DNA of 64,000 nt from Vulcanimicrobiota bacterium (lineage in GTDB: Bacteria; Vulcanimicrobiota; Vulcanimicrobiia; Vulcanimicrobiales; Vulcanimicrobiaceae). This document shows, piece by piece, positions 2,403 to 15,619 of the stretch; the stretch's first letter is position 1; each line of letters starts with the position of its first letter. Location: contig CAWETW010000003.1 in the NCBI GenBank assembly GCA_963812155.1, positions 960,001-1,024,000 on the forward strand, read 5' to 3'. Below the pieces are notes generated by a model. The model had not been told where the DNA came from and searched no databases. It worked only from the letters and a program-made list of their open reading frames with translations. Both the position numbers and the translations under genes were made by a program.

Positions 2403-2431
2403 TTGGCCGAAGGCGGTTCCGAGAGTATAAT
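2403..2431 (+). promoter_or_regulatory. Sigma70-type promoter giving a leaderless transcript
   Basis: TTGGCC (2403-2408), 17 nt, TATAAT (2426-2431), 7 nt, in-frame GTG (2439); no SD. Confidence 0.6.
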
Positions 2432-2438
2432 CGGCCCG

Positions 2439-3956
2439 GTGACTTCAGCAAGCCGAATACCCGCAGTGAAAACGAATCGCCTTTCGATCGCCTGGATGGT
2501 GCTTGGGTTGAACCTCGTCATCACGGTTCCGCTTGCGGGCGTACTGAACATCTGGCAAGACGAAGCGTATACGCTGGAAACGACGAGCCGCGGTATCGGC
2601 TACGCGTTTGCGCAAGCCATAGGTTTCGAGCAAAACGCTCCCCTGTATTTCGTGGTCATGTCGATATGGCGGCACGCCGGCGACGGGATCTTTCTCTTGC
2701 GCCTTTTTTCGGTGCTTTGCATCGCGGGGACGGTCTTGCTTCTTCCGGGACTCGCGCGCAGGTACGTCCCTCAGGTGGACGGCGTCCTTGTCGCCGCAGT
2801 CGTCGCCTGCAACCCTTTCGTCGTTTGGGCGGCGGTCGAACTACGCGTCTACGCGTTGGTCGTGTTGATCTCGGCACTGCTGCTGCGGACGTTTTTCGAT
2901 GCCTTCATGGAGGAACATCCCGGTAAGGGGGCCGCGATTGCCTACGCCGTGTGCGTCGCCGGCGCCCTCTATACGCAGTATTATCTGGCGTTTATCGTTG
3001 CAGCACAGGGCGCAACGCTCTTGTTTTACAACCGGCGCGCGATACTGAGGTACGCGCTAGCGGGGGCGGCGGCCGCGCTCGCGTTCGTGCCGATGCTCGC
3101 GATCGTTCCGGGCCAGGTGCAGAATTTTAAAGGCATCTTCGCGCCGCCGTCGATCGCTCAGACGTGTATCACCCTCACCGGCATCGTGTTGCGGTACGTG
3201 CTGCCGCTGCCGATCTTGCATGCGAAGAATGCCTACGTAGTGTTGGTAGTCGTTGCGATTCTGGCAGCGGCCTTTGCGCGACCGTCGTTGAAAGCGATCG
3301 GAAGGAACCCAATCGTCGCCATGACGGCGTTTGCCTTTGCGTTTTTCGCCGTCGGTACGTATCTGTCGGGCGTACACGTCTTGGATCGCCACGCCGCCTC
3401 GCTCTACGTGCCCGCCACGCTTTCGATCTTTGCCGTTCTTGCGACCGTGCGCTTCGCGAACGGACGGCGCGCCGTGTTGGTGTGTTCGGCTTTGGTCATG
3501 GTCCTATCGCTGGTGACGCTCGTGGAAACCTATCGGCACCTTGCCAAGCCCGGCGACTGGGCGCGCGTCGCCGAGTATCTCCAAACTCACGAACGAAACG
3601 GCGAACCCATCGCCGTCTTCGAAGCCGAGAACGCCCTGCCGCTTGCCTACTATTACAAAGGGGCCAACCGGATCGTCCCGATACCTCACGGCGTGGATTT
3701 TCGCCGGTACGACGTTAGTCGGTTTGTGGTCGAGAATGAGGCGGAACTTCAATCGACGGTGCCGAGGGCAAGCCGGCTCTGGCTCGTGACGTCCGGCGAA
3801 TGCGCCTCCGCAAACGTACGGTTCGGCTGTAACCGGCTCGAGGAGTTCGTCGCCCAGCGTTATCGGATCGGCGCCGACCGGCAGTTCTATGGGACCCGAG
3901 TTCGCCTGATCGAGGCGATCGGGAGGCGCACGGACCACCGCCCCCTAAAAAAATAG
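2439..3956 (+). CDS. GT39/ArnT/PMT-like membrane glycosyltransferase
   Basis: IWQDEAYT, EQNAPLYF, LRLFSVLC, ELRVYAL, ALYTQYY motifs; multi-TM. Start chosen from the promoter position. Confidence 0.8.
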   Translation: MTSASRIPAVKTNRLSIAWMVLGLNLVITVPLAGVLNIWQDEAYTLETTSRGIGYAFAQAIGFEQNAPLYFVVMSIWRHAGDGIFLLRLFSVLCIAGTVLLLPGLARRYVPQVDGVLVAAVVACNPFVVWAAVELRVYALVVLISALLLRTFFDAFMEEHPGKGAAIAYAVCVAGALYTQYYLAFIVAAQGATLLFYNRRAILRYALAGAAAALAFVPMLAIVPGQVQNFKGIFAPPSIAQTCITLTGIVLRYVLPLPILHAKNAYVVLVVVAILAAAFARPSLKAIGRNPIVAMTAFAFAFFAVGTYLSGVHVLDRHAASLYVPATLSIFAVLATVRFANGRRAVLVCSALVMVLSLVTLVETYRHLAKPGDWARVAEYLQTHERNGEPIAVFEAENALPLAYYYKGANRIVPIPHGVDFRRYDVSRFVVENEAELQSTVPRASRLWLVTSGECASANVRFGCNRLEEFVAQRYRIGADRQFYGTRVRLIEAIGRRTDHRPLKK

Positions 3957-4043
3957 GCCCTTAGCGCTAGAATATTCGCGCTATTAGGAGTAAGCTGGTT
4001 TCGCCTGGTCAATAGGTACCAGGTCCTTTTAGTTGCGGGAAAG

Positions 4044-4196
4044 GTGAGTTCGGTGGCGTTTTTATTCGCGGTTATCCTATTATTTACAAACATGCACCCG
4101 GCCGATACGCCGGGAGGCCCGCTCGATACGCCGGGCGGACCAATCGCCCACGCGACGGCGCCCGTTGGACCGGGAGCGTCAAGGCATCTGCATTAG
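4044..4196 (+). CDS. Small (47-50 aa) putatively exported peptide with tandem DTPGGP repeats; candidate signalling propeptide, absent from the ORF track
   Basis: Manual translation from GTG 4044: MSSVAFLFAVILLFTNMHPADTPGGPLDTPGGPIAHATAPVGPGASRHLH*. Alternative GTG 4053 has SD-like AAGGTGA at 4041-4047. The two repeat copies differ at synonymous third positions. Confidence 0.65.
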   Translation: MSSVAFLFAVILLFTNMHPADTPGGPLDTPGGPIAHATAPVGPGASRHLH

Positions 4197-4326
4197 CGCG
4201 ACGATGTCGCTGGGTCTTTACGTTGCTCTGAAAAGGACCCCCGCTTCTCGGGTGTAACTAGCGCACCTTAACTTCGAGTGCGATCCGCGGCGCCGTTATG
4301 CATCGTGGTCAGGAGCAGTTTGCCAC

Positions 4327-5799
4327 TTGGGACCACGCGAGTTATTCAGTACGGGTGAGCTGTCCGCATGCGTTCGCGCTACCGCTCGGGCTACGTCTAC
4401 GCACGACCGAGTCCTACTTGTTCGCGCGCTGATGCGTCTGGACCGGCATCGCGAGGCACTTGAAGCGATCGCCGACACGCGCACGACGACGCTCGAGGAA
4501 GAAGCCTTTTTCCGAGCCTTAGAGGCATCGTGCCACGCCTTTCTCGGATCGGTGAATCTCGCGGCCCGGACGCTGCTCGGCATCGGGACTTACGCCTATG
4601 GCCTGGACACGCAGTACGAGATCGCCCACGCGCGCATGCTTACTTCCTGGGTCCAAGGCTCACCGGACTCGATGGAAGCCGCGCTGCGCGACGTCGACGT
4701 AAGTTCGGCGCCGCACCTTTACGGTCACTGGCTGTTCTCGCTCTCCTGGGTCGCATCGTTGCGGGGTGAATACCTCGAACAACTGCAGCTTCTCGAAGAG
4801 GCGGCCACACACGTCGCCGGCGTCCCCGAAGCGCAGGACATCAGCCTGCTGGCCAATGCGACGCGATCCATGATCCACTTGGTACGCGAAATTTCCGCGA
4901 AGCGAACGCTCGATTTTGCGATAAAGATGGCCGAATCGATCCCCTGGACGCACGATCTCGAAGTGGAACGGTTTCTAACGTTCCGCGGCCTCGCGTGGGC
5001 ACACGCACTGCGCGGCGAACACGAACGCGCCTTTCACTATGCATATTTCGCTCGCGATATCGCGCCCTCGGTAATGTGGATCACCGCCTCCTACGCAGAC
5101 CAAGCCTATCTTGCGAGAATGGCCGGCGAGAATTCGAGCGCCGATGCGCTCCTGCGCCACGCCGTGGCCTGCGCGCGCGAAACCGATTGGTCAACGATGG
5201 GCGAAGAGCGCGTGGCACTGCTGAACCTGATCGAACTCCTTTCCGACCAAGACGTGGAGACTGGAAAGGCGCTGCTCGCAATCTACGATGGGATCCCGAT
5301 GCGGCTGTCGTCACGCTTCGCACTTTCGCGCGATTGCCGGCTCCGTGCGATGGAAGAGTACGCGCGCGGTACTATTCTCGCCGTCTCCGGCGATCAAAAT
5401 TCCGCGATCGATCTCTTGATTAGCGCTTATTCGACGTTCCAATCGATTCACTACGCATGGCGGGCGGCCGCCGCGGCCCTGCGGCTCCATGCGATTACCG
5501 ACGATTCTTCTTGGATGCTGCGCGCTCGCGACGCGGTCGAGGCGTTTCCGGAGAGCTCGGTCGCGGATCAAATTCGCAAGACCGCATCGGTTGCCGAAGA
5601 CGAGCGCATTGCCTCGCTCACTCCGGCGCAGCGGCGGGTGTTCGGGCTCATCTGCGAAGGTCTCACCGACAAGCAGGTGGCTCAAACCCTGGGCATCTCT
5701 CCCGAGACGGCCAAAAACCACGCCGCCCGCGTTCGGGCTGCGTTTGGAGTTCACTCCCGAGCCGCGCTCATTGCCGCCGTTCACCGCGAGGCGGTCTAA
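4327..5799 (+). CDS. Large transcriptional regulator: ~420-aa helical (TPR-like) N-terminal region plus C-terminal LuxR HTH
   Basis: HTH LTPAQRRVFGLICEGLTDKQVAQTLGISPETAKNHAARV; Ala/Leu-rich helical repeats; no REC domain or Walker A seen. AGGAG at 4311-4315 precedes the TTG. Confidence 0.8.
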   Translation: MGPRELFSTGELSACVRATARATSTHDRVLLVRALMRLDRHREALEAIADTRTTTLEEEAFFRALEASCHAFLGSVNLAARTLLGIGTYAYGLDTQYEIAHARMLTSWVQGSPDSMEAALRDVDVSSAPHLYGHWLFSLSWVASLRGEYLEQLQLLEEAATHVAGVPEAQDISLLANATRSMIHLVREISAKRTLDFAIKMAESIPWTHDLEVERFLTFRGLAWAHALRGEHERAFHYAYFARDIAPSVMWITASYADQAYLARMAGENSSADALLRHAVACARETDWSTMGEERVALLNLIELLSDQDVETGKALLAIYDGIPMRLSSRFALSRDCRLRAMEEYARGTILAVSGDQNSAIDLLISAYSTFQSIHYAWRAAAAALRLHAITDDSSWMLRARDAVEAFPESSVADQIRKTASVAEDERIASLTPAQRRVFGLICEGLTDKQVAQTLGISPETAKNHAARVRAAFGVHSRAALIAAVHREAV

Positions 5800-5906
5800 G
5801 CAGGCTTCGCCTGCCCTTTCGCCCCCTAGCCCGAAGGACTCCCGGACCAGAGGTGCTGCGCCTGCCGGGACTTCTGGTTGGCGCGGCGTCGCGTTACCAT
5901 CGAACC

Positions 5907-6818
5907 ATGGGCCGAGCTCTCGCCATCGCTACCTTTTCGCTGCTGTGCGCTATCGGCGCGCAGGCGGCGTTTGCCGGCGGCGCCGCTGCCGCAGTTGCCT
6001 CTCAAACGGTCATTCACCCCGGCGATCAGCTTGGCGTCCTCGTTTTCGGGGATCAATCCCTTACGCAAAACGTCATGGTGCTTTCAGACGGAACGATCGA
6101 GTTTCCGCTGGTGGGACGCCTCGCGGTCGCTGGAAAAACTCCGACCGCGGCAGCGACACTGCTCGCGGAGCGGCTGGCCCGCTACGTGCGTCATCCCGTC
6201 ATTACTATTTCGATCGCCCAACTCGGCCAGCCCAACGTGCTCGTTCTCGGCGAAGTGAAATCGCCGGGCAAGTATCAGCTTCGCTCGGAAGCAAAGCTCA
6301 CCGATGCAATCGCGGCGGCCGGCGGCATCGCCGATAGCAACGGTGCCTTTCCGGAAGCGCGCGTTGCCGATGCGACGGGTAAGGTGACGCTCGTTTCTCT
6401 CCAGAGTCTTCTTCAACGCGGCGATACCTCGCTCGACATACCGCTTGCGGAGGGTTCGGTCGTATACGTGCCCGGTCCGATACGCTTTACCGTCAGCGTT
6501 GCGGGCGCCGTCGATCATCCGGGCGACGTTCAAGTGAACGAAGGCGACCGTCTTTCGATGGTGATCGCCAAAGCCGGAAACAGCCAAAACGCCCAGGCCG
6601 ACCTCAACCACATTCACCTGATTCGCATGGGACCAGACGGCAAACAAACGACCACAGAGGTCAACCTCTACCTCGTCCTCAAGGGCGCCGACCCGAGCGC
6701 GGACGTCGCGCTGGAGAAGGGTGACGTCGTCTACGTGCCCCAGGGCGTTCGACACTCGGATATATTCTCTGGGATCGGCAGCGGCCTACTCTACGTGCTC
6801 ACTCACTTCATCCCGTAG
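5907..6818 (+). CDS. Polysaccharide biosynthesis/export (Wza-like) protein with SLBB domains
   Basis: Signal peptide; IHPGDQL.V.VFG...DGTIEFPLVGRL.VAGKT; VLGEVKSPGKY; LEKGDVVYVP. Confidence 0.88.
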   Translation: MGRALAIATFSLLCAIGAQAAFAGGAAAAVASQTVIHPGDQLGVLVFGDQSLTQNVMVLSDGTIEFPLVGRLAVAGKTPTAAATLLAERLARYVRHPVITISIAQLGQPNVLVLGEVKSPGKYQLRSEAKLTDAIAAAGGIADSNGAFPEARVADATGKVTLVSLQSLLQRGDTSLDIPLAEGSVVYVPGPIRFTVSVAGAVDHPGDVQVNEGDRLSMVIAKAGNSQNAQADLNHIHLIRMGPDGKQTTTEVNLYLVLKGADPSADVALEKGDVVYVPQGVRHSDIFSGIGSGLLYVLTHFIP

Positions 6819-7356: not shown

Positions 7357-8931
7357 CTAGTTGCCGAGCATGACGCGGGCGGCGTTCCATCCGGAGGCGC
7401 CCATGACGCCGCCGCCGGGATGCGCCGCGGCGCCGCACATAAACAAACCTTTCACCGGCGTTGCGTAGCTCGCGAATCCCGGTACCGGGCGGAACATAAA
7501 GAGTTGGTGCAGCGGCATCGCGCCCTGGAAGATGCTGCCGCCGGTGAGTCCGAACGTTTCCTCCAGATCGAGCGGCGTCAGAATTTGGCGATCGATGACG
7601 GACGCTTTGAAACCGGGCGCATATTGCTCTACGATGTCGAAGCAGCGGTCGGCGTATTCGTTGCGCAACGCATCCGTCCAGCCGCCGTTGGGCGCGTATG
7701 GCGCATACTGCGTAAACATCGACATGAGATGCTTGCCGGGCGGCGCGACGGTCGGGTCGAGCGATGACGGCATCGTGCATTCGACGACCGGCTGCCGTGA
7801 AATGTTCCCGTACTTTGCGTCGTCGTAGGCGCGTTCGATGAAGTCCTGATCCGGGCAGAGATGCACGGTCCCGAAGTGCTGGGGTCCGGGTTCGTGACCG
7901 GGCAGCGCAGTAAAACTCGGCAGCCGCTCCAGCGCGACGTTGATCTTGCACGAGGCGCTGCTATACGAAATGCGCTCGACGGCATCGTTAAACGCCGGCG
8001 GGAGCGTCGAAGGATCGAGCATGTTCTGAAACGTGAGCCGGCAATCCACCCCCGACGCAACGCGCTTGGCGGAAAACTCGTCGCCGTTGGTCAGAACAAC
8101 CCCGGTGACTGCGCCGTTTTTCGTGAGAATGCGCGCGACCTCGGATTCCGTGCGGATTTCGGCGCCGAGGTCGGTTGCGGCGCGTGCGAGCGCCTGCGTC
8201 AAGCCGCCCATGCCGCCTTTGACGTAGCTCCAAACGCCGCGCTTCCCGTTCGTCTCGCCCATGACGTGGTGGAACAACACGTACGCCGTGCCGGGCATCG
8301 ACGGCGCCATGAACGCGCCGATGATCGCATCGGTGGCGATTGTGCCCTTCAACTCTTCCGACTCGAACCAGCGATCGAGAATCGGACGCGCGGCGCCGGT
8401 GAGCACTTCGATCGCCTCACCCATTGCGGGGCCGAGCTTCTGCAATGCTCTGCCCATCTTGCCCATCTGGAGCAGTTGAGGAATCGACGGCCGCAGCAAG
8501 TTCGGCGGCACTTGGGTGAGCGTCGGCTCGACGACCGATGCAACGCGCTCCAGCATCGCTTCGTACTGCGGATAGCGCTCCGCATCTCGCTTACTGAACT
8601 TGGCGATCTCTTCGACGTCTTGGTGCGTGCCGGTGCCGAGAATGAGATAGCGGCCGTCGAGGAAGGGCGAGAACGACGCCGGATTGCGTTCGATCGGCTC
8701 GAATCCGTAGTCGCGCAGGCGCAAATCGGCGATGATCTCGGGCCGGAACAGACTGTTGACGTAGGCGGCCGTCGAGACTTTGTAGCCCGGCCACGTCTCT
8801 TCGGAGACGCAGGCGCCGCCGACGACGTAGCGCCGTTCCAGCACGAGCACCTTCCATTTGGCACGCGCGAGATAGCAGGCCGTCACGAGCCCGTTATGTC
8901 CGCCACCAACGATGATCGCATCGTAGGTCAT
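7357..8931 (-). CDS. NAD(P)/FAD-dependent oxidoreductase, phytoene-dehydrogenase/PYROXD2-like
   Basis: MTYDAIIVGGGHNGLV, GGACVSEE, GGMGGLT, TPLDLEETFGLTGGSIFQG, CGAAAHPGGGVMGASG. ATG overlaps the upstream stop (ATGA). Confidence 0.9.
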   Translation of the reverse strand: MTYDAIIVGGGHNGLVTACYLARAKWKVLVLERRYVVGGACVSEETWPGYKVSTAAYVNSLFRPEIIADLRLRDYGFEPIERNPASFSPFLDGRYLILGTGTHQDVEEIAKFSKRDAERYPQYEAMLERVASVVEPTLTQVPPNLLRPSIPQLLQMGKMGRALQKLGPAMGEAIEVLTGAARPILDRWFESEELKGTIATDAIIGAFMAPSMPGTAYVLFHHVMGETNGKRGVWSYVKGGMGGLTQALARAATDLGAEIRTESEVARILTKNGAVTGVVLTNGDEFSAKRVASGVDCRLTFQNMLDPSTLPPAFNDAVERISYSSASCKINVALERLPSFTALPGHEPGPQHFGTVHLCPDQDFIERAYDDAKYGNISRQPVVECTMPSSLDPTVAPPGKHLMSMFTQYAPYAPNGGWTDALRNEYADRCFDIVEQYAPGFKASVIDRQILTPLDLEETFGLTGGSIFQGAMPLHQLFMFRPVPGFASYATPVKGLFMCGAAAHPGGGVMGASGWNAARVMLGN

Positions 8932-11900
8932 AGTTTCACCTGTACGCTGAAGTATGCGTTGAACGGTTGCATGAGGGAGCTGGAAAGGTCGTTGTACGTT
9001 CCGAAGTACGGTTCGTAGGGATAGCGCAGGAACGTCTGCACGTTGTCGTGCGGATTGTAGGCGTTTCCGACCGGAGGCGTGCTGGGACCGCCGACCAGGT
9101 TGGTGTAGAGGCAGACGTTGTTGCCTTGCAGGTAGGTGAAGCCGGTCGTTTGTCCCCCGAAGCAGGTCTGCAGCAGATTCGCGAGCGTCACCGTCAGCCG
9201 GATGCGCGGCGTCGCGTCGTAGGTCATTTGAAGATGCCCGAGGAGTTGCGCCGGTTCCCGGAAAGCGCCGAGCGCATCGAACTGGCCGGTGTACGGATCG
9301 GGAACCGAAAGCGCCGCCGACGAACAGTCGTGCGCGTTGTAGGGCAGACCGCCGGACGAGCCATACGGATAGCGCGGATCGCCTCCGGTCGAGCCCGGCA
9401 ATGCGGTGCAGCCGGCTGCGGCCGGATCGATGCCGGGCGTCGTCAGCGGGGCGCCGTAGCGGTTGCCCGCCGAAAACTGAAACGACGGGGTGATGGCAAA
9501 CTTGTCGTGCTTGTAGTTGAGGATAAGGGTCGCGACGTATGGGTAGTTGTAGGCGTTGACGCCGGAGCCGACCGGTCCCGGAAAGACCGAGTAGGGAAGG
9601 TACGCCGCCGACGGATCGTAGAGCGAGAAGACCGGTGAGTTCCAGTAGGGATTGGCGATGTCGCCTTTGGCGCACGACGGATCCGGCGCGCCGCTCACCG
9701 GAACGTAACAGGGAGCCGCATACGAGTTCGGGCCTTGCGTCGTGTAACCGCAGACGAGTTGACCGAACTGCTTCTTTCCGTATTGCGACCCGCCGGGAGC
9801 GCAGGCCTTAGTATAGGCGTTGTACTGCGCGATGCCGGTATTGATCGGCGTGAGCAGCGTCGTTCCGTTCTGCAGCGTGCCGTATTTGAAGGTCGCATAC
9901 GTGTACGCAAACGAGAGCTGCCCGGAGATGCCGTTGCGGTTGAAGTCGCCTTTGTTGAACTGGAACTCGAAGCCGCGAGACGTCTGGTAGCCGGCGTTCA
10001 AGCCGGAGGTGATGCCGGTCGTATAGTTGATGTAGAAGTTCGAGACTTCGGCCTGCGTTTGGCGCAGGAAGGGCGACAGCTTGAACGACATGTCGGTGCC
10101 CTTGAAGTGGTGCTCGATCGAGAAGTCGCTGTTGAACGAAATCGAGGGTGCCACCGCGTGGCCCGGCGAGTTGAAACCGAGCGCGTAGAACTCGGTGAGC
10201 GTGTCGGGGAGATTTGCTTCGAGCCCGTTATACTGCTCGTACGCCGAACTCGGCTGTTCGTTGTATTTTCCGTAACTGGCGCGCAAAACCGTGTCGGGGT
10301 TGACGGTGTACGTCGCGCCGATGCGCGGCTGCACGATGTTATAGTCGAAGGCCGCGGGCGTGTTGTCGAGATGCGCGTTGACGTACTGCTTGCCGAGCTT
10401 CGGACACGGCAGCTGCGAGTTCGTGCTCCAGTCGCCGCGCGGGAGAAGCGCGGTCCGGTCGACGAGGGTCAGCGTCTGCGTATCGAAGCACGTGTCTTGG
10501 TTGAACGCATCGAACCAGAAGTTCCGGGCGGCGCCCGTGTCGGTATTCGAACCGACGAAACTGTAGTTGTCGACGCGTACGCCGGCGTTGACGGTAAGCT
10601 TGTCGTTCGGGCGCCACTCGTCGGTGATCGAGTAGCCGGCGAAGTGCGGCGTGACCGTATTGTTGAGGCCGTAGTCGCCGTTTTCGGCGACGTAGTACGC
10701 GCACGGACCGTTGCCGCAGCGTAAACCGCTGACGTTGGGCTGGCCGCTGCCGTTGAGGCCGAGATACGAGGGCAGCCGGTTGGCGCCGAACGAGACGCCG
10801 CTCCCGCCGCCGTCGTAGCAGGTGGTCGCAAACGTGCCGTTGCCGCCCCGCTTGATGCGATAGCAGGTGCCGCCGTAGATGTCGTTCGGGTTGACGAGCT
10901 GCGCGAACTCGTTGCCGTAGAAGCGGCCGAATGCGAACATCTGCTCGTTGTAAATCCGGGCGCCGGTTGCCGTGGTGTAGCTTCCTTCGGCCTGCAGCAG
11001 GTTTTGCGAGTTGATCTGATCGGTGAACGAGGCGCTGATGCCGCGCGTGTGGTTGTTGATTTCGTAGTCGCCGCTGTCGTAGTACGCGTACGACTGCAGC
11101 GACATCATCGGGCCGTTTTCGATCCAGTCGGAGTAGTAGGTGTAACCGTAGAGCCGCAGGTACGCGCTGGAACTGAAGTTTTTCTGGTATTGCAGCTTGA
11201 CGATCGCCTGGCCGTTGTAACCGCGGTCGCGCTGAAAATTCGGATCGGGGATCGAGCCTTGGAATGGATGGGACGGCGACGACGGATAGAGGTAGGGAGA
11301 GATCAGCGACTGGTAGTTGGCCGGGAGCAGCGTGCCCGTGGGACCCTTGTACTGATACGTGTCGAGATAGTAGGGTGGAAACGATCCGGTCGATGAGATC
11401 CAGTTTTGCAAGCCTTCGTCGGTCACCGAACTGTTAAAGGTCGTGAAAATCTCGTCGTTGTCGTAGAGCAGCTGCACGTCGTCGCGCAGCGAGTCGTGTT
11501 TGTGCGGGATCGCGATGTGGAAGTTCGCGACGAAGGTGCGGTCGGCGATGTTGACGGGATTGAGCGTCCCGAATCCGATCGGCCCGAGCACCCAGCCGGT
11601 CGTTCCGAGCGGCCCCACGTTCGGCTTTCCGTTGGTGAAGCACGACGGCAGCGCTTGGATCGATGTCTTGCCCGGACATTGCGCCACCTGCTGGCCGAAC
11701 TCGTTGGTGTAGGCCGCGCCCCCGAACTGATCGACGAAGACGTGATCTTGATTGTAGCCGTTGAACCCGACGTAATAGGAGAAGAGCCGGTCGGGCGTCG
11801 CGCCGCCGGTCTCCACGCTGAGGCTGTGGTAGAAGGTCGGCGAACCCGCCGCGAGATCTGCTTGCGCGTAGCCGGGGAACGTGCCGGTTTTGATGACCTG

Positions 11901-12635
11901 GTTGATGAAGCCGGCGAGACCTTGCGCTTCGGCGCCGGCGGGCGTCGCACCGGTGTAGACTTGCAACTCGAGCTGGCCGAGCGACGAAATCGATCCTGAC
12001 GGGTAGTTGTCGAAGGCGCGATTGATCGGAATGCCGTCGAACTCGTAGCCGACTTCGTAGGAGTCGCCGCCGCGAACGTGCACCGCCTGCAAGTATCCGG
12101 CTTGATTCGGCGGCACGTACGCGCCCGGTACGCTCGCGATGGCCGAGTAGGCGCTGTTGAGACTGCCGCCGCCGCCGAGCGCCGAGAGCCGCGCCTGCTG
12201 CGCCGCGTTGATCGAATAGATGTCGGCGGTCGTGCCGGGGCGCACCAAACTCGACGCCGAGCGCGACGAGACTTGCGCGATCGTCTTGAGCGCTTTGTGC
12301 ATGGCAAACGCCAGCGTCTGCTGCGCGTCGGCGAGCACCGCGATGCCCGGGTACGACACCGGGTCGTAGCCCGACTTTTCGAGCGACGCCGTATACTCGT
12401 CGGGAGCGAGCGAGACAAAATGAAAGTGGCCGCCGGCGTCGGTGAGCGTGCTCGCGCTCTGCGACGGACTGGCGACCGTGACGCGTACGCCGGCGAGCGG
12501 CGCCGACGTTCCGGCTTCGGTCACCGTGCCGCCGAGGCCGCCGGTCGTGCCGGCCGGCGCAAGCGAAGGGACGATGACGGCGCCCGCACACGCGAACGCG
12601 GCGAGAGCGGCGACGATGCGGCGATGAATGCTCAT
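8928..12635 (-). CDS. TonB-dependent receptor with N-terminal carboxypeptidase-regulatory-like domain (Oar-like)
   Basis: Signal peptide, GTTGGLGGTV...TDAGGHF, plug VRGG...FDGIPIN, DEWRPNDKLTVNAGVRVD, QPRIGATY, C-terminal beta strand FSVQVKL. Confidence 0.88.
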   Translation of the reverse strand: MSIHRRIVAALAAFACAGAVIVPSLAPAGTTGGLGGTVTEAGTSAPLAGVRVTVASPSQSASTLTDAGGHFHFVSLAPDEYTASLEKSGYDPVSYPGIAVLADAQQTLAFAMHKALKTIAQVSSRSASSLVRPGTTADIYSINAAQQARLSALGGGGSLNSAYSAIASVPGAYVPPNQAGYLQAVHVRGGDSYEVGYEFDGIPINRAFDNYPSGSISSLGQLELQVYTGATPAGAEAQGLAGFINQVIKTGTFPGYAQADLAAGSPTFYHSLSVETGGATPDRLFSYYVGFNGYNQDHVFVDQFGGAAYTNEFGQQVAQCPGKTSIQALPSCFTNGKPNVGPLGTTGWVLGPIGFGTLNPVNIADRTFVANFHIAIPHKHDSLRDDVQLLYDNDEIFTTFNSSVTDEGLQNWISSTGSFPPYYLDTYQYKGPTGTLLPANYQSLISPYLYPSSPSHPFQGSIPDPNFQRDRGYNGQAIVKLQYQKNFSSSAYLRLYGYTYYSDWIENGPMMSLQSYAYYDSGDYEINNHTRGISASFTDQINSQNLLQAEGSYTTATGARIYNEQMFAFGRFYGNEFAQLVNPNDIYGGTCYRIKRGGNGTFATTCYDGGGSGVSFGANRLPSYLGLNGSGQPNVSGLRCGNGPCAYYVAENGDYGLNNTVTPHFAGYSITDEWRPNDKLTVNAGVRVDNYSFVGSNTDTGAARNFWFDAFNQDTCFDTQTLTLVDRTALLPRGDWSTNSQLPCPKLGKQYVNAHLDNTPAAFDYNIVQPRIGATYTVNPDTVLRASYGKYNEQPSSAYEQYNGLEANLPDTLTEFYALGFNSPGHAVAPSISFNSDFSIEHHFKGTDMSFKLSPFLRQTQAEVSNFYINYTTGITSGLNAGYQTSRGFEFQFNKGDFNRNGISGQLSFAYTYATFKYGTLQNGTTLLTPINTGIAQYNAYTKACAPGGSQYGKKQFGQLVCGYTTQGPNSYAAPCYVPVSGAPDPSCAKGDIANPYWNSPVFSLYDPSAAYLPYSVFPGPVGSGVNAYNYPYVATLILNYKHDKFAITPSFQFSAGNRYGAPLTTPGIDPAAAGCTALPGSTGGDPRYPYGSSGGLPYNAHDCSSAALSVPDPYTGQFDALGAFREPAQLLGHLQMTYDATPRIRLTVTLANLLQTCFGGQTTGFTYLQGNNVCLYTNLVGGPSTPPVGNAYNPHDNVQTFLRYPYEPYFGTYNDLSSSLMQPFNAYFSVQVKL

Positions 12636-15619
12636 GTTTGGTAAGCCTCGATGAAGGTATGGTAAGCGGACATGGCGCGGTTGAACTGGTCGCCGATCTC
12701 GGCGGCTTCGCGAAGATGCGGCGGAAGCGGAGGCCCTTGTGAGAGGTTCACGACGCCCAAGAGAATCGTCAAGCGCTCGCGCAGCGCGTCCGGTTTCCAC
12801 TGGTCGTCTTCGGAGTTCACGATACCCGACGTCAACTGTGCGTAGACGGCGTCGAACGCGTGCCGCTGCGACGCGTGCACGCGTCCACGCAGCGCGTCGA
12901 GCCGGTTGAGCGCGGTATCGACCTGCGAGAGTTCGCGATCGAGCGCCGCGATGAAATCGTAGCGCGCAACGTACTGGGCTTGCGTCCAGTGCGCGCGCGG
13001 ATCGGGGCGAACTTCAAGCGTTCGTTCGGACGCGCGGTCGCCGATGCGAAGCCGTACCGTATAGGTGCCGGGTACGACCTGCGGCGCGCTCCAGGCCTTG
13101 TTCCAATCGCGCGCGGCGTTCCACGGCACGATGGGTTCGGCGAGCAAATCCCAGGACGCGCGATCGATGCCGGCGTCTCCGGGTGCATCGAGATGCCGCA
13201 CGACCGCGCCGGAAACGTCGAGCAGGTCGATCGTGACGCCGGGCGTCTCGCGCGGCAAATAGTACGACAGCAGCGCGCCGTAGTCGGGATCGCTTCCGCT
13301 GAAGACGCCCGCCGGCACGCAGCATTCGTCGTCGTGCGTTCCGTATTGGCCGGACCACCAGATATACCACGCGTACGCCGGACGCGGCGCGAAGAGCGCC
13401 GGAACGCCGGCGTCGCGCGCGGCGGTAAACCCTTCCAGCGGCGTGAGATCGTCGAGGATGTAGATTCCGCGTCCGTGCGTGCCGGCGATGAGATCGACGG
13501 CCTCGGGCTGCACGCGCAGATCGCGGACCGCGGTCGGCGGCATGTTCAAACGGAGACTGCGCCAGGCCGCGCCGCGGTCGAACGTCACGAACGCGCCCTG
13601 CTCCAAGCCCGCGTACAGCACGTCGGCGTTGCGGGGATCTTCGCGAAGAACGTGCGCGGGCTGGTCGGGCGGCAGGCCCGCGACGACCGAACGCCACGAC
13701 GTGCCCCCGTCATCGGTTGCGAGCACGTAGGGCGTGCGATCGCCCATCGTTTGGCGATTGACGACTGCGTACGCGCGGTCGATCGAGACACGCGACGGCT
13801 CGACGGTCTCGACGCGCCCCCATTCCGGGACGAACGACGGCGTAACGTTGCGCCAGTGCGCTCCGCCGTCGATGGTGCGCCAAATCAAGCCGTCGTCACT
13901 GCCCACCCAAATCGTCCTTGCATCGATCGGCGACGGCGCGATGTCGAGCAGCGTGTCGTAGAACTCCGCGCCCGAAACGTCGGTGTTGATCGAGCCGCCC
14001 GCAACTTGCTGTTTGCTCGGATCGTTGCGCGTGAGATCCGGACTCATCGCAGTCCACGTACGCCCGCGGTCGCGCGTTTCGAAGAGCACGTTCCCGCCGA
14101 AGAACGCGACCCCAGGCTCGAGCCGCGAGAACGCCAGCGGCGATTCCCAGTTGAAGCGATACGGCAAACCCGCCAGCGGACGTCCGTTGGTGTCGCGCAC
14201 GTAGGGCGAGATGTCGTAGTTCTGGCGCGACGCGAGGTCGAAGATGCCCAGCTGTCCGTTGAGTTCGTTGATGCCGACGTTCCAGACCGATTGCGGATCG
14301 CCGGGCTCAGGCCAGACGGCCACGCCGTCGGCATCGTTGGCGACGTCCCGCCAGTCCCGTTCCGTCAAGCCGAGCGGGCTGAGCGAGAGATTCGGCGCGC
14401 AGTAGGAGTCGTCGTCCTGCATCGCCGCGCAGACGTGATAGGGATTCTGGTCGTCGAAGCCCACGTGATAGATCTGCGCGATATCCACGTTGAAGCGCCA
14501 GTCCCAGGTCGCGCCGCCGTCGATCGAGATCGGCGCGCCGCCGTCGTCGGCTTCGATGATGCGCCGCCCGTCGCGCGAGATCCAAAAGCCGTGATGGTCT
14601 TGGTGGACGGCGGTCGAGATATCGTCGAACGTCTTGCCGCCGTCGTGCGTAACGAGCAAATCTTCCGAAGCGAAGAAGACGCGATTGGGATCGCGCGGAT
14701 CGACCGCAAGACGGCTGAAATAAAATGGGCGTTGATCGATGATCGTGTCGCGCGACATCATCCGCCAATGCGCGCCGGCATCTTCGGATCGCCAGAGCAA
14801 TCCTTCGCGCGATTGAATCAGCGCGTAGACCCGCCGCGGATCGCTCGGGGCCACGGCGATGCCGATGCGTCCCATTTCACCCGAAGGCAGGCCGTTGCCG
14901 CGCAGGCGATGCCAGGTCGTGCCGCCGTCGGTCGACTTGTAAATGCCGTCGTCGGATCCTCCGCTGGTGAAGGTCCACGGTTTGCGCCGGAACTGCCAGA
15001 CGCCGGCATAGACGACGCGCGGATCGTGGGCGTTCCAGGCGAGGTCGGAGACGCCGCTGCGCGGCCCCGCGTAAAGCGTGCGCCGCCACGTTCGTCCGAA
15101 ATCGGTCGTGCGGTAGACCCCGCGGTCGCCGGAGTCTTTGAATGGATTGCCGAGCGCTCCGGCGATGACCGCACCGGGATCGTGCGGGTTGATCAGCAGC
15201 GCGGAGACGGCATAGGAATCGTTCAATCCGCGCCGGCTCCAATGCACGCCGCCGTCACGCGTAAGCCAGATGCCGTCGCCGTAGGACGCGTCGTTGCGAG
15301 GATTCGGCTCGCCGGTTCCGGCCCATACGACCTCTTGGTTCGAGGGAGCGATGGCGATTGCGCCGATCGCGCCGACCGCGTCGCGCGACCACACGTCGCG
15401 CCACGTCAATCCGCCGTCGGTCGTCTTGAAAACGCCGCCGCCTGCTGCACCGAAATAGTACAGGGAAGGATTCGCGTCGGTACCGGCTACACCGGAGGTG
15501 CGCCCGCCGGCGAGTGCCGGACCGATGTTGCGCCAATCGAGCCCAATCGCGTCGCTGCCTTGTGCTGGTGAGGTCGCACATGCCACGAACAGCGCGCAAA
15601 CAAAAGAGAAGAGGCGCAC
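12632..15619 (-). CDS. Secreted BNR/Asp-box (VPS10/sortilin-like) glycosyl-hydrolase-type protein
   Basis: WRNIGPA..GGR, repeated (S/T).DGG.TW boxes, SPDLTRND, GTHGRGIYILDD. Start GTG 15619 is approximate. Confidence 0.85.
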   Translation of the reverse strand: MRLFSFVCALFVACATSPAQGSDAIGLDWRNIGPALAGGRTSGVAGTDANPSLYYFGAAGGGVFKTTDGGLTWRDVWSRDAVGAIGAIAIAPSNQEVVWAGTGEPNPRNDASYGDGIWLTRDGGVHWSRRGLNDSYAVSALLINPHDPGAVIAGALGNPFKDSGDRGVYRTTDFGRTWRRTLYAGPRSGVSDLAWNAHDPRVVYAGVWQFRRKPWTFTSGGSDDGIYKSTDGGTTWHRLRGNGLPSGEMGRIGIAVAPSDPRRVYALIQSREGLLWRSEDAGAHWRMMSRDTIIDQRPFYFSRLAVDPRDPNRVFFASEDLLVTHDGGKTFDDISTAVHQDHHGFWISRDGRRIIEADDGGAPISIDGGATWDWRFNVDIAQIYHVGFDDQNPYHVCAAMQDDDSYCAPNLSLSPLGLTERDWRDVANDADGVAVWPEPGDPQSVWNVGINELNGQLGIFDLASRQNYDISPYVRDTNGRPLAGLPYRFNWESPLAFSRLEPGVAFFGGNVLFETRDRGRTWTAMSPDLTRNDPSKQQVAGGSINTDVSGAEFYDTLLDIAPSPIDARTIWVGSDDGLIWRTIDGGAHWRNVTPSFVPEWGRVETVEPSRVSIDRAYAVVNRQTMGDRTPYVLATDDGGTSWRSVVAGLPPDQPAHVLREDPRNADVLYAGLEQGAFVTFDRGAAWRSLRLNMPPTAVRDLRVQPEAVDLIAGTHGRGIYILDDLTPLEGFTAARDAGVPALFAPRPAYAWYIWWSGQYGTHDDECCVPAGVFSGSDPDYGALLSYYLPRETPGVTIDLLDVSGAVVRHLDAPGDAGIDRASWDLLAEPIVPWNAARDWNKAWSAPQVVPGTYTVRLRIGDRASERTLEVRPDPRAHWTQAQYVARYDFIAALDRELSQVDTALNRLDALRGRVHASQRHAFDAVYAQLTSGIVNSEDDQWKPDALRERLTILLGVVNLSQGPPLPPHLREAAEIGDQFNRAMSAYHTFIEAYQT

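Follow-up and report, generated by a model that had tools for sequence, protein, structure and literature searches.

A candidate RRNPP-like peptide-sensing cassette that pairs a short D-x-x-GG propeptide with a helical-repeat, LuxR-type regulator

To our knowledge, one-component peptide quorum sensing has been described almost only from Bacillota. HetR is, as far as we know, not a TPR/LuxR protein. MalT is a sugar sensor (maltotriose), and the mature SHPs of the Rgg-SHP systems start with an acidic residue. In RRNPPA regulators the HTH or three-helix bundle is N-terminal, according to the accessible part of PMC9765709, and tandem pheromone copies occur in Rap-Phr propeptides (PMC11343458, in excerpt). 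RRNPP_detector discarded clusters with N-terminal TPRs, as stated in the available sections of PMC10075063. A diderm precedent is HetR-PatX/PatS of filamentous cyanobacteria, where a hexapeptide is exported, matured by a protease and acts directly on a transcription factor in the cytoplasm (PMC12756182, in part). Rgg-SHP systems show another departure from the usual route: their short hydrophobic propeptides bypass Sec and signal peptidase I via PptAB export and Eep (passages of PMC10075063 and PMC9765709), the SHP leaders having basic N-termini (PMC10075063, same passages).

Here we describe a cassette found in a 64,000-nucleotide window, that is, the whole stretch of DNA that was analysed. 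Its three parts (operator, propeptide gene and receptor gene) exist, travel together and are conserved, and the receptor combines a helical-repeat superhelix with a LuxR HTH. The best reading, to which we assign a probability of roughly 0.6, is that they form a one-component peptide-sensing circuit that is RRNPP-like but separately built. No published description of the cassette was found in the best-ranked, mostly open-access literature without supplements (the RRNPP_detector supplements could bear on taxonomic range), and it looks like an undescribed form of peptide signalling. The core features are:

4040..4047, + strand: Shine-Dalgarno-like stretch AAAGGTGA, 5 nt before GTG 4053, with similar stretches in the same place in homologues
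4053..4196, + strand: candidate propeptide gene, 47 aa, with a 17-aa uncharged hydrophobic leader, a P-x-D junction, two DTPGGP(L/I) units and a variable tail
4104-4124 and 4125-4145, + strand: tandem 7-residue units DTPGGPL and DTPGGPI, the candidate mature signal, judged from sequence and synonymous-codon spread
4327..5799, + strand: 490-aa regulator, a ~425-aa helical-repeat (TPR/MalT-domain-III-like) sensor with a LuxR HTH at residues 430-482 (5614-5772)

An earlier note on this DNA had pointed to a 47-50 codon ORF with a hydrophobic core and two DTPGGP units in a 7-residue period, and the sequence is as described: the ORF translates as (M)AFLFAVILLFTNMHPA-DTPGGPL-DTPGGPI-AHATAPVGPGASRHLH. 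It can be read from a GTG at 4044 (50 aa, 4044..4196, + strand) or from a GTG at 4053 (47 aa). The latter is most likely the start, because of the Shine-Dalgarno-like stretch before it and because a start codon lies 16-21 codons ahead of the motif Thr in homologous ORFs, in most cases after a similar stretch. No other short ORF of the 2.96-Mb genome doubles its D-x-x-GG, and that uniqueness, together with its conservation upstream of homologous regulators, argues that the ORF is more than a product of chance. Among 34 close-clade propeptides (41-64 aa) the motif occurs once in 27, twice in five and three times in two; the tandem repeat is optional, and doubling is not general. Carriers in some distant clades reach 350 aa. 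Gene callers tend to place the regulator start at residue 36 and to overlook the small ORF, with which the single relative returned by a propeptide search of a protein collection is consistent.

The two DTPGGP copies differ silently at three positions (GGA GGC CCG vs GGC GGA CCA), which had been taken to indicate selection on the peptide. The spread of synonymous codons agrees: across the 43 motif copies of 34 close loci, Asp is encoded by either of its codons, and Thr, Pro and each Gly by all four of theirs. T-P-G-G was fixed by the search pattern, and the Asp and the Pro two before it were left free; Asp is nevertheless present in 41/43 copies and the Pro in 36/43, and the remainder of the ORF is weakly conserved (mean column identity 32%). 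A DNA or RNA element in place of a peptide is ruled out by this spread, by a propeptide region that showed no unusual RNA fold (z 0.68) and by an Rfam search of the region that gave no match. The motif is conserved as a peptide, not as DNA. A Pro/Gly-rich motif in a short same-strand upstream ORF might also suggest a leader peptide that stalls ribosomes and so governs how the downstream regulator is translated. This would sit poorly with a motif that is present in up to ~10 copies, that lies 60-170 bp plus a variable tail from the regulator start, that is found 45-80 residues into 340-aa proteins in some carriers, and whose region is free of unusual RNA structure; we consider stalling highly improbable.

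The pairing of peptide gene and regulator was followed through 144 loci holding 145 distinct regulators. Eighty of these loci were picked among 150 matches listed, beyond which there were 134 further matches; the first 20 were taken by rank and the others so as to favour other genera, all before upstream DNA was seen; the remaining loci were those that the homologue searches themselves had returned. Ten regulators were dropped for short or truncated upstream sequence, leaving 135. A fixed rule (start codon, hydrophobic 8-mer within 22 residues, D-x(1-3)-GG within 80 residues, stop no more than 600 bp upstream) picked out an ORF upstream of 86/135 regulators, against 2/126 downstream controls, 3/135 divergent controls and 70/1338 long ORFs of the own genome, counts that show a rule and not independent events, because the genomes are kin. 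The upstream scan of homologues suggested in the earlier note thus finds ORFs with a leader and D..GG beside most family members, one of the 86 (L073) being a false positive by inspection. By similarity bin the counts are 32/36, 1/11, 22/32, 25/36 and 6/20, and the close clade stands at 34/36 with the variants NTPGGM and AGPGGM counted.

About 14 of the 49 misses carry variant words (NTPGGM, AGPGGM, EMMGGGP, SVGGGL, EVIGGG, PLGGSGI, leaderless DTPGGL and others), and three have a divergent lipoprotein with C-NTNGG. The rest appear peptide-less, among them tandem receptor arrays, two close-clade loci (L022 and L023) and the own-genome paralog. Searched in the reverse direction, the DNA pattern for P-x-DTPGGP gave 17 matches in 12 of 114 family genomes (reversed control 0), and among the matches listed all 17 lie directly upstream of a family regulator; in distant families the pattern matched six times (control 4), never in a leader ORF. 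As a separate possibility, a general lipoprotein maturation motif is ruled out by the own genome, where only 5/237 lipobox-like ORFs carry D-x(1-3)-GG in the first 50 mature residues.

Several individual loci deserve mention. The second family regulator of the own genome (L002, G000:C3:576602-577801, - strand; 26% identity) stands behind a membrane-protein gene with neither peptide ORF nor palindrome upstream and would be an orphan receptor. Elsewhere in that genome (G000:C1:435716-436877, + strand) a lipoprotein with the mature N-terminus C-QGGL-DSGGGMPG and no family regulator nearby resembles the D(S/G)GG..MPG words of another clade, and could supply the orphan's ligand. Tandem arrays of two to five family regulators occur at L067, L068, L028, L029, L094, L103 and L086, some headed by one repeat-peptide gene (PLGGSGI repeats) and others without. 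The L032 regulator sits between D..GG-repeat lipoproteins, with DVGGGGP upstream and DTSGGP/DSTPGGP downstream. A 95% identical regulator lies on a 4-kb contig labelled Rudaea sp. (L036), a label that is probably a binning error rather than a sign of transfer.

The regulator starts at a TTG at 4327, 130 bp from the stop of the small ORF. Two Pfam families exceed their cut-offs, GerE/LuxR HTH at 430-482 and an overlapping Sigma70_r4_2; searches of Pfam and NCBIfam returned no receiver or ATPase family (and no Response_reg match), as expected from the initial description of a 490-aa protein with a C-terminal LuxR HTH and neither of these domains. An NCBIfam MalT match to the C-terminus is weak. 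The TPR superhelix that the note had proposed to look for with AlphaFold over 4327-5799 is borne out by an AlphaFold2 model (77 sequences) that is all-helical (pLDDT 93.4, pTM 0.84), with no beta strand of three or more residues, and whose top structural matches are of TPR type. A wide structure search ranked MalT domain III first (1hz4; Z 23.4, rmsd 5.1, 327 aligned), 3 Z units over Rap, and then a phage Rap (20.3), an APC subunit (20.3), RapI (19.2), AimR (17.9 and 17.7) and NprR (17.6). Foldseek returned generic TPR proteins, with NprR at rank 7. Against PDB sequences, the family profile matched consensus TPR proteins (E 4e-23) and also LuxR HTHs, with no RRNPP receptor among the best 60 matches.

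On the strength of these structure and profile matches, the regulator is modelled as a MalT-like build minus the ATPase and falls in the same class of shapes as peptide receptors; to share a fold is not in itself evidence of function. Its family-conserved charged and aromatic residues (R187, E188, R220, D258, W288, E293, E294, R295, D336, R338 and R379) could line a pocket for an acidic N-terminus. Complex prediction, run with the receptor alignment and 30 residues from the first Asp, scored 0.02 against a mark of 0.32, a value that we count neither for nor against binding. Queried with 4327-5796, the ESM Atlas contains Actinomycetota clusters of 400-570-aa TPR + LuxR proteins (feature score 0.96).

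The region between the upstream gene and the small ORF, and that just behind the regulator, hold putative control elements:

3967..3996, + strand: putative promoter of the propeptide gene, with a -35-like hexamer (3967-3972) and a -10-like TAAGCT (3991-3996)
4005..4022, no strand assigned: predicted operator, an 18-bp imperfect palindrome with the family core NTAG-N10-CTAN
5800..5814, + strand: short G+C hairpin directly after the regulator stop, then three T; a possible weak terminator that the terminator scan did not flag

An alignment of 30 homologous upstream regions, read by eye, shows CTGGCG..N18..TAnnCT blocks in many of them; a sigma-70 consensus scan returned no promoter site. The palindrome, 8 bp downstream of the putative -10, has the start codon 30 bp further on, and in the upstream alignment it stands just behind the TAnnCT hexamer. 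An unseeded palindrome search converged on GTAGTAAATATTTACTAC, with leave-one-out scores of at least 10 bits in 20/33 regions vs 18/660 shuffles. The refined matrix finds a site in 24/36 close loci and, although trained on close loci alone, also in 22/53 distant-clade promoters, where 1.6 were expected, mostly 55-70 bp ahead of the ORF start. A matrix-free palindrome test gave 46/85 vs 1/85 in coding and 6/81 in downstream controls. Such a palindrome also occurs directly upstream of 8/30 peptide-less regulators. The site at 4005-4022 has the genome's best matrix score, having itself belonged to the training set, and a genome-wide scan gave five matches of at least 12 bits vs 4-15 with permuted matrices, so that no wider regulon is shown. 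A terminator was considered for the hairpin at 4003-4024 (terminator scan: one found, 1.5 expected) and set aside; since what homologues retain is a short, AT-rich palindrome that lacks a T run, the hairpin is read as the operator.

The predicted operator geometry, judged by eye, is too near the start for an activator site, which suggests that the regulator represses the propeptide gene through 4005-4022, a form of autoregulation. A palindrome ahead of the peptide gene would suit a plain regulator-target pair too, where the protein would sense a small molecule and the small ORF would be a secreted, regulated output with some other job rather than the ligand. That MalT domain III is the top fold match (Z 23.4), that many family members are without a peptide and that look-alike TPR-LuxR clusters exist in Actinomycetota all agree with such a pair, as does the position of the predicted operator before the small ORF. 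It would leave unexplained why very different upstream ORFs share solely a 5-7 residue D..GG word behind a leader and why that word is clade-specific and often repeated; nor does any modifying enzyme recur as a constant neighbour among 76 flanking ORFs scanned. We regard the regulator-target pair as unlikely and favour the peptide-sensing circuit.

How the peptide would leave the cytoplasm is suggested mainly by the lipoprotein-bearing clades, because the leader of the close clade does not look like a signal peptidase I substrate: among 33 close-clade leaders of 15-20 residues, none has K/R within the first six residues, none has an A-x-A site, and the residue preceding Asp is L, A, D, I or T (often L, I or D), with Pro at -2 to Asp in 26/33. 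The close-clade leader, judged from its sequence, is not a canonical Sec/SPase I signal. The export first proposed for the small ORF agrees with the hydrophobic core and is weakened by the missing basic residues (0/33 leaders with K/R in the first six residues). Most distant clades, by eye and by pattern, have Sec lipoprotein leaders with a lipobox-like Cys, which would put the motif outside the cytoplasm. The host genome encodes 13 SBP_bac_5 peptide-binding proteins, and M50 proteases at two places. Two leaderless exceptions, L027 (about 1230-1370) and L069, have a DTPGGL word in a short acidic ORF; at both, operator-like palindromes lie on either side of the regulator.

These leaderless versions, together with the missing basic n-region (33/33 close-clade leaders), would suit a small protein that stays inside the cell, as an intracellular or membrane-tethered modulator whose motif meets the receptor from the cytoplasmic side. 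The Sec lipoprotein leaders of most distant clades, with their motif outside the cytoplasm, speak against it, and leaderless peptides can still signal between cells (PMC10518010, in the portion available); an internal modulator seems to us quite improbable, and an exported peptide signal is the better account.

A tree of 128 regulators (HTH removed, midpoint root) gives each clade its own word and its own carrier. Short uncharged leaders precede DTPGG(P/M/I/L); small lipoproteins carry repeats of the DSVGGGP type; 320-350-aa DUF4382 + CarboxypepD_reg lipoproteins have DTHGG/DTLGG/DVLGG in their linker; and D(S/G)GG(T/S)MPG follows Gly-rich leaders. A similar motif thus recurs in three unrelated carriers: the short uncharged leader, the repeat lipoprotein (up to ~10 repeats) and the DUF4382 lipoprotein. 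One genome (G069) has four different pairs (L016, L065, L070, L101). The co-variation asked for in the earlier note holds in that words follow the regulator clade, and does not hold in the lone independent P-to-M change (L010), whose receptor has none of the residues that mark the M/I/L clade; no receptor residues were found that track the P-vs-M/I/L word independently of descent, and linkage alone may explain the congruence of word and clade. At four loci of the DUF4382-carrier class (L098, L100, L102, L115) PAS(-GGDEF) genes follow, which hints at c-di-GMP output.

A wider reading, which we hold at even odds, is that a MalT-type sensor minus its ATPase became a peptide receptor, and that a family-wide, separately evolved D..GG language arose in a diderm soil phylum, with dozens of receptor clades that each read a word of their own, repress one shared type of palindromic operator and form several channels within a genome. 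The words would be released from short leaders, from repeat lipoproteins or from large lipoproteins of the surface. The carriers also bring in envelope proteolysis: the same cell might re-import a peptide released in its own periplasm, which would then report protease activity or envelope state, not density. The diderm host, a motif placed in the linker of anchored lipoproteins in several clades (320-350-aa DUF4382 proteins included) and neighbours that are often surface-glycan or PAS-GGDEF genes are compatible with this. Multi-copy precursors and diversified words better fit signal amplification and private channels, however, and a 5-7-mer peptide could pass porins, so self-sensing is rather unlikely beside signalling between cells.

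The cassette lies in an accessory block of glycan-type genes:

202-867, + strand: NarL-type response regulator, upstream of the block
840-2294, - strand: GT87 glycosyltransferase, upstream of the block and syntenic in loci with long enough flanks
2403..3956, + strand: PMT_2-like membrane glycosyltransferase, same accessory block (Pfam PF13231, E 1.9e-5, just under cut-off; synteny)
5907..6818, + strand: Wza-like polysaccharide export lipoprotein (Poly_export + SLBB), same accessory block (Pfam/NCBIfam; synteny)

Among 36 close loci, the PMT_2-like gene is upstream in 25 and the wza-like gene downstream in 24. In the best-sampled genus, 14/44 genomes have the PMT_2-like gene, and since all 14 carry the whole set in the order PMT_2, peptide, regulator, wza, the block is gained or lost whole. 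The peptide-regulator pair is kept in 9/11 close-clade loci outside the PMT_2-wza block. Several other close copies are beside glycan-type genes (GT4, Wzc-like AAA_31, Acetyltransf_6), some copies adjoin tuf or a Na/H exchanger, and other genera have PMT_2-like and wza-like genes without a close regulator. Synteny thus supports the earlier idea that the cassette controls its glycan neighbours; the refined matrix, which finds no operator before the PMT_2-like or wza-like gene, does not, and we regard such control as a tentative possibility. Further along the window (8928-12800, - strand), a ~1,240-aa secreted protein with a Phe-rich, beta-barrel-like end (by eye) is probably a TonB-dependent-receptor-like outer-membrane protein.

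Named relatives are labelled Candidatus Cybelea, Baltobacteraceae and Eremiobacteraeota, and the host is placed in Eremiobacterota. The genome encodes one Omp85/BamA and one LpxC, in line with the diderm lineage first supposed, and the phylum's cultured member is bounded by an outer membrane with LPS (PMC9758169, in part); on these grounds we take the host, a soil bacterium, to be a diderm. Sensor-domain matches were found in 101/201 phylum genomes searched (97/113 in the window's family, 3/87 outside). Viral contigs contained no relative (close alignment; one distant protein as queries), and plasmids gave no match with the query used.

We infer a mechanism of five steps, given in decreasing order of support. 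The receptor, probably as a dimer, would bind the 18-bp palindrome just downstream of the propeptide gene's -10, where a repressor would sit. The hydrophobic leader (a lipoprotein leader in other clades) would take the propeptide over the inner membrane, where a protease other than signal peptidase I would cut before the conserved Asp at the P-x-D junction, and trimming would yield a 5-7 residue peptide such as DTPGG(P). An Opp/Dpp-type transporter would return the peptide, and the superhelix groove would bind it. Binding would lift repression, giving positive feedback that reports cell density or confinement. Finally, output in the window's clade may reach the adjoining surface-glycan genes, perhaps by read-through into wza. 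If true, this would be a convergent solution in an outer-membrane bacterium, shared by the majority of genomes in one abundant soil family and offering a large set of natural receptor-peptide pairs; it would be a source of orthogonal peptide-inducible switches, and one would have to ask by what route such peptides get across two membranes. Under the published detector rules, a repeats-first, HTH-last architecture like this one would be discarded.

Compared with known systems, the cassette shows four of the five RRNPP signature features given in the available sections of PMC10075063. The propeptide (47 aa) is within the 10-100 aa of RRNPP(A) and the receptor (490 aa) within 250-500 aa, TPR-like repeats are seen in the model, the structure matches and the family profile, and the genes are adjacent, 130 bp apart here and so paired in 86/135 family members. 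With regard to secretion, RRNPP(A) propeptides leave through Sec/SPase I, or PptAB in the case of SHP and PrgQ, on a basic n-region followed by a hydrophobic core; the leader here has the hydrophobic core and lacks the basic n-region and an A-x-A site. The RRNPP(A) domain order (effector N-terminal, repeats C-terminal) is reversed, with the repeats N-terminal and the HTH at 430-482. The earlier proposal of an RRNPP-like module of different architecture keeps its adjacency and its TPR-like receptor, and gives way on the closest solved fold, which is MalT domain III and not an RRNPP receptor. Like the RRNPP(A) pairs (Rap-Phr, NprR-NprX, PlcR-PapR, Rgg-SHP, PrgX, AimR-AimP), it has a leader-bearing propeptide gene beside a 250-500-aa helical-repeat protein, variable short words with tandem copies in some propeptides, and a fold close to Rap, AimR and NprR (Z 17.6-20.3). 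Unlike these systems of Bacillota, it resides in a diderm host, with a leader that is without a basic n-region or is of lipoprotein type. It would thus work like RRNPP, and is not a member, because its domain order is reversed with the LuxR HTH last. Rgg-SHP is similar in its short hydrophobic propeptides that do without the Sec/SPase I route, and dissimilar in the N-terminal HTH of Rgg and the basic N-termini of SHP leaders. MalT/LAL proteins share the order of helical-repeat sensor and then C-terminal LuxR HTH; the cassette regulator is not one of them, because it has no ATPase, and it also differs in having no arm domain, in length (~490 vs ~900 aa), and in being paired with a peptide gene and a palindromic predicted operator. 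Tested against NarL/FixJ response regulators, it has no receiver and its model is all-helical. HetR-PatX/PatS likewise joins a diderm host, a short peptide and a cytoplasmic transcription factor, binding in our cassette being a proposal, but uses one conserved RG(S/T)GR patterning word, whereas here the receptor-peptide pairs are diversified.
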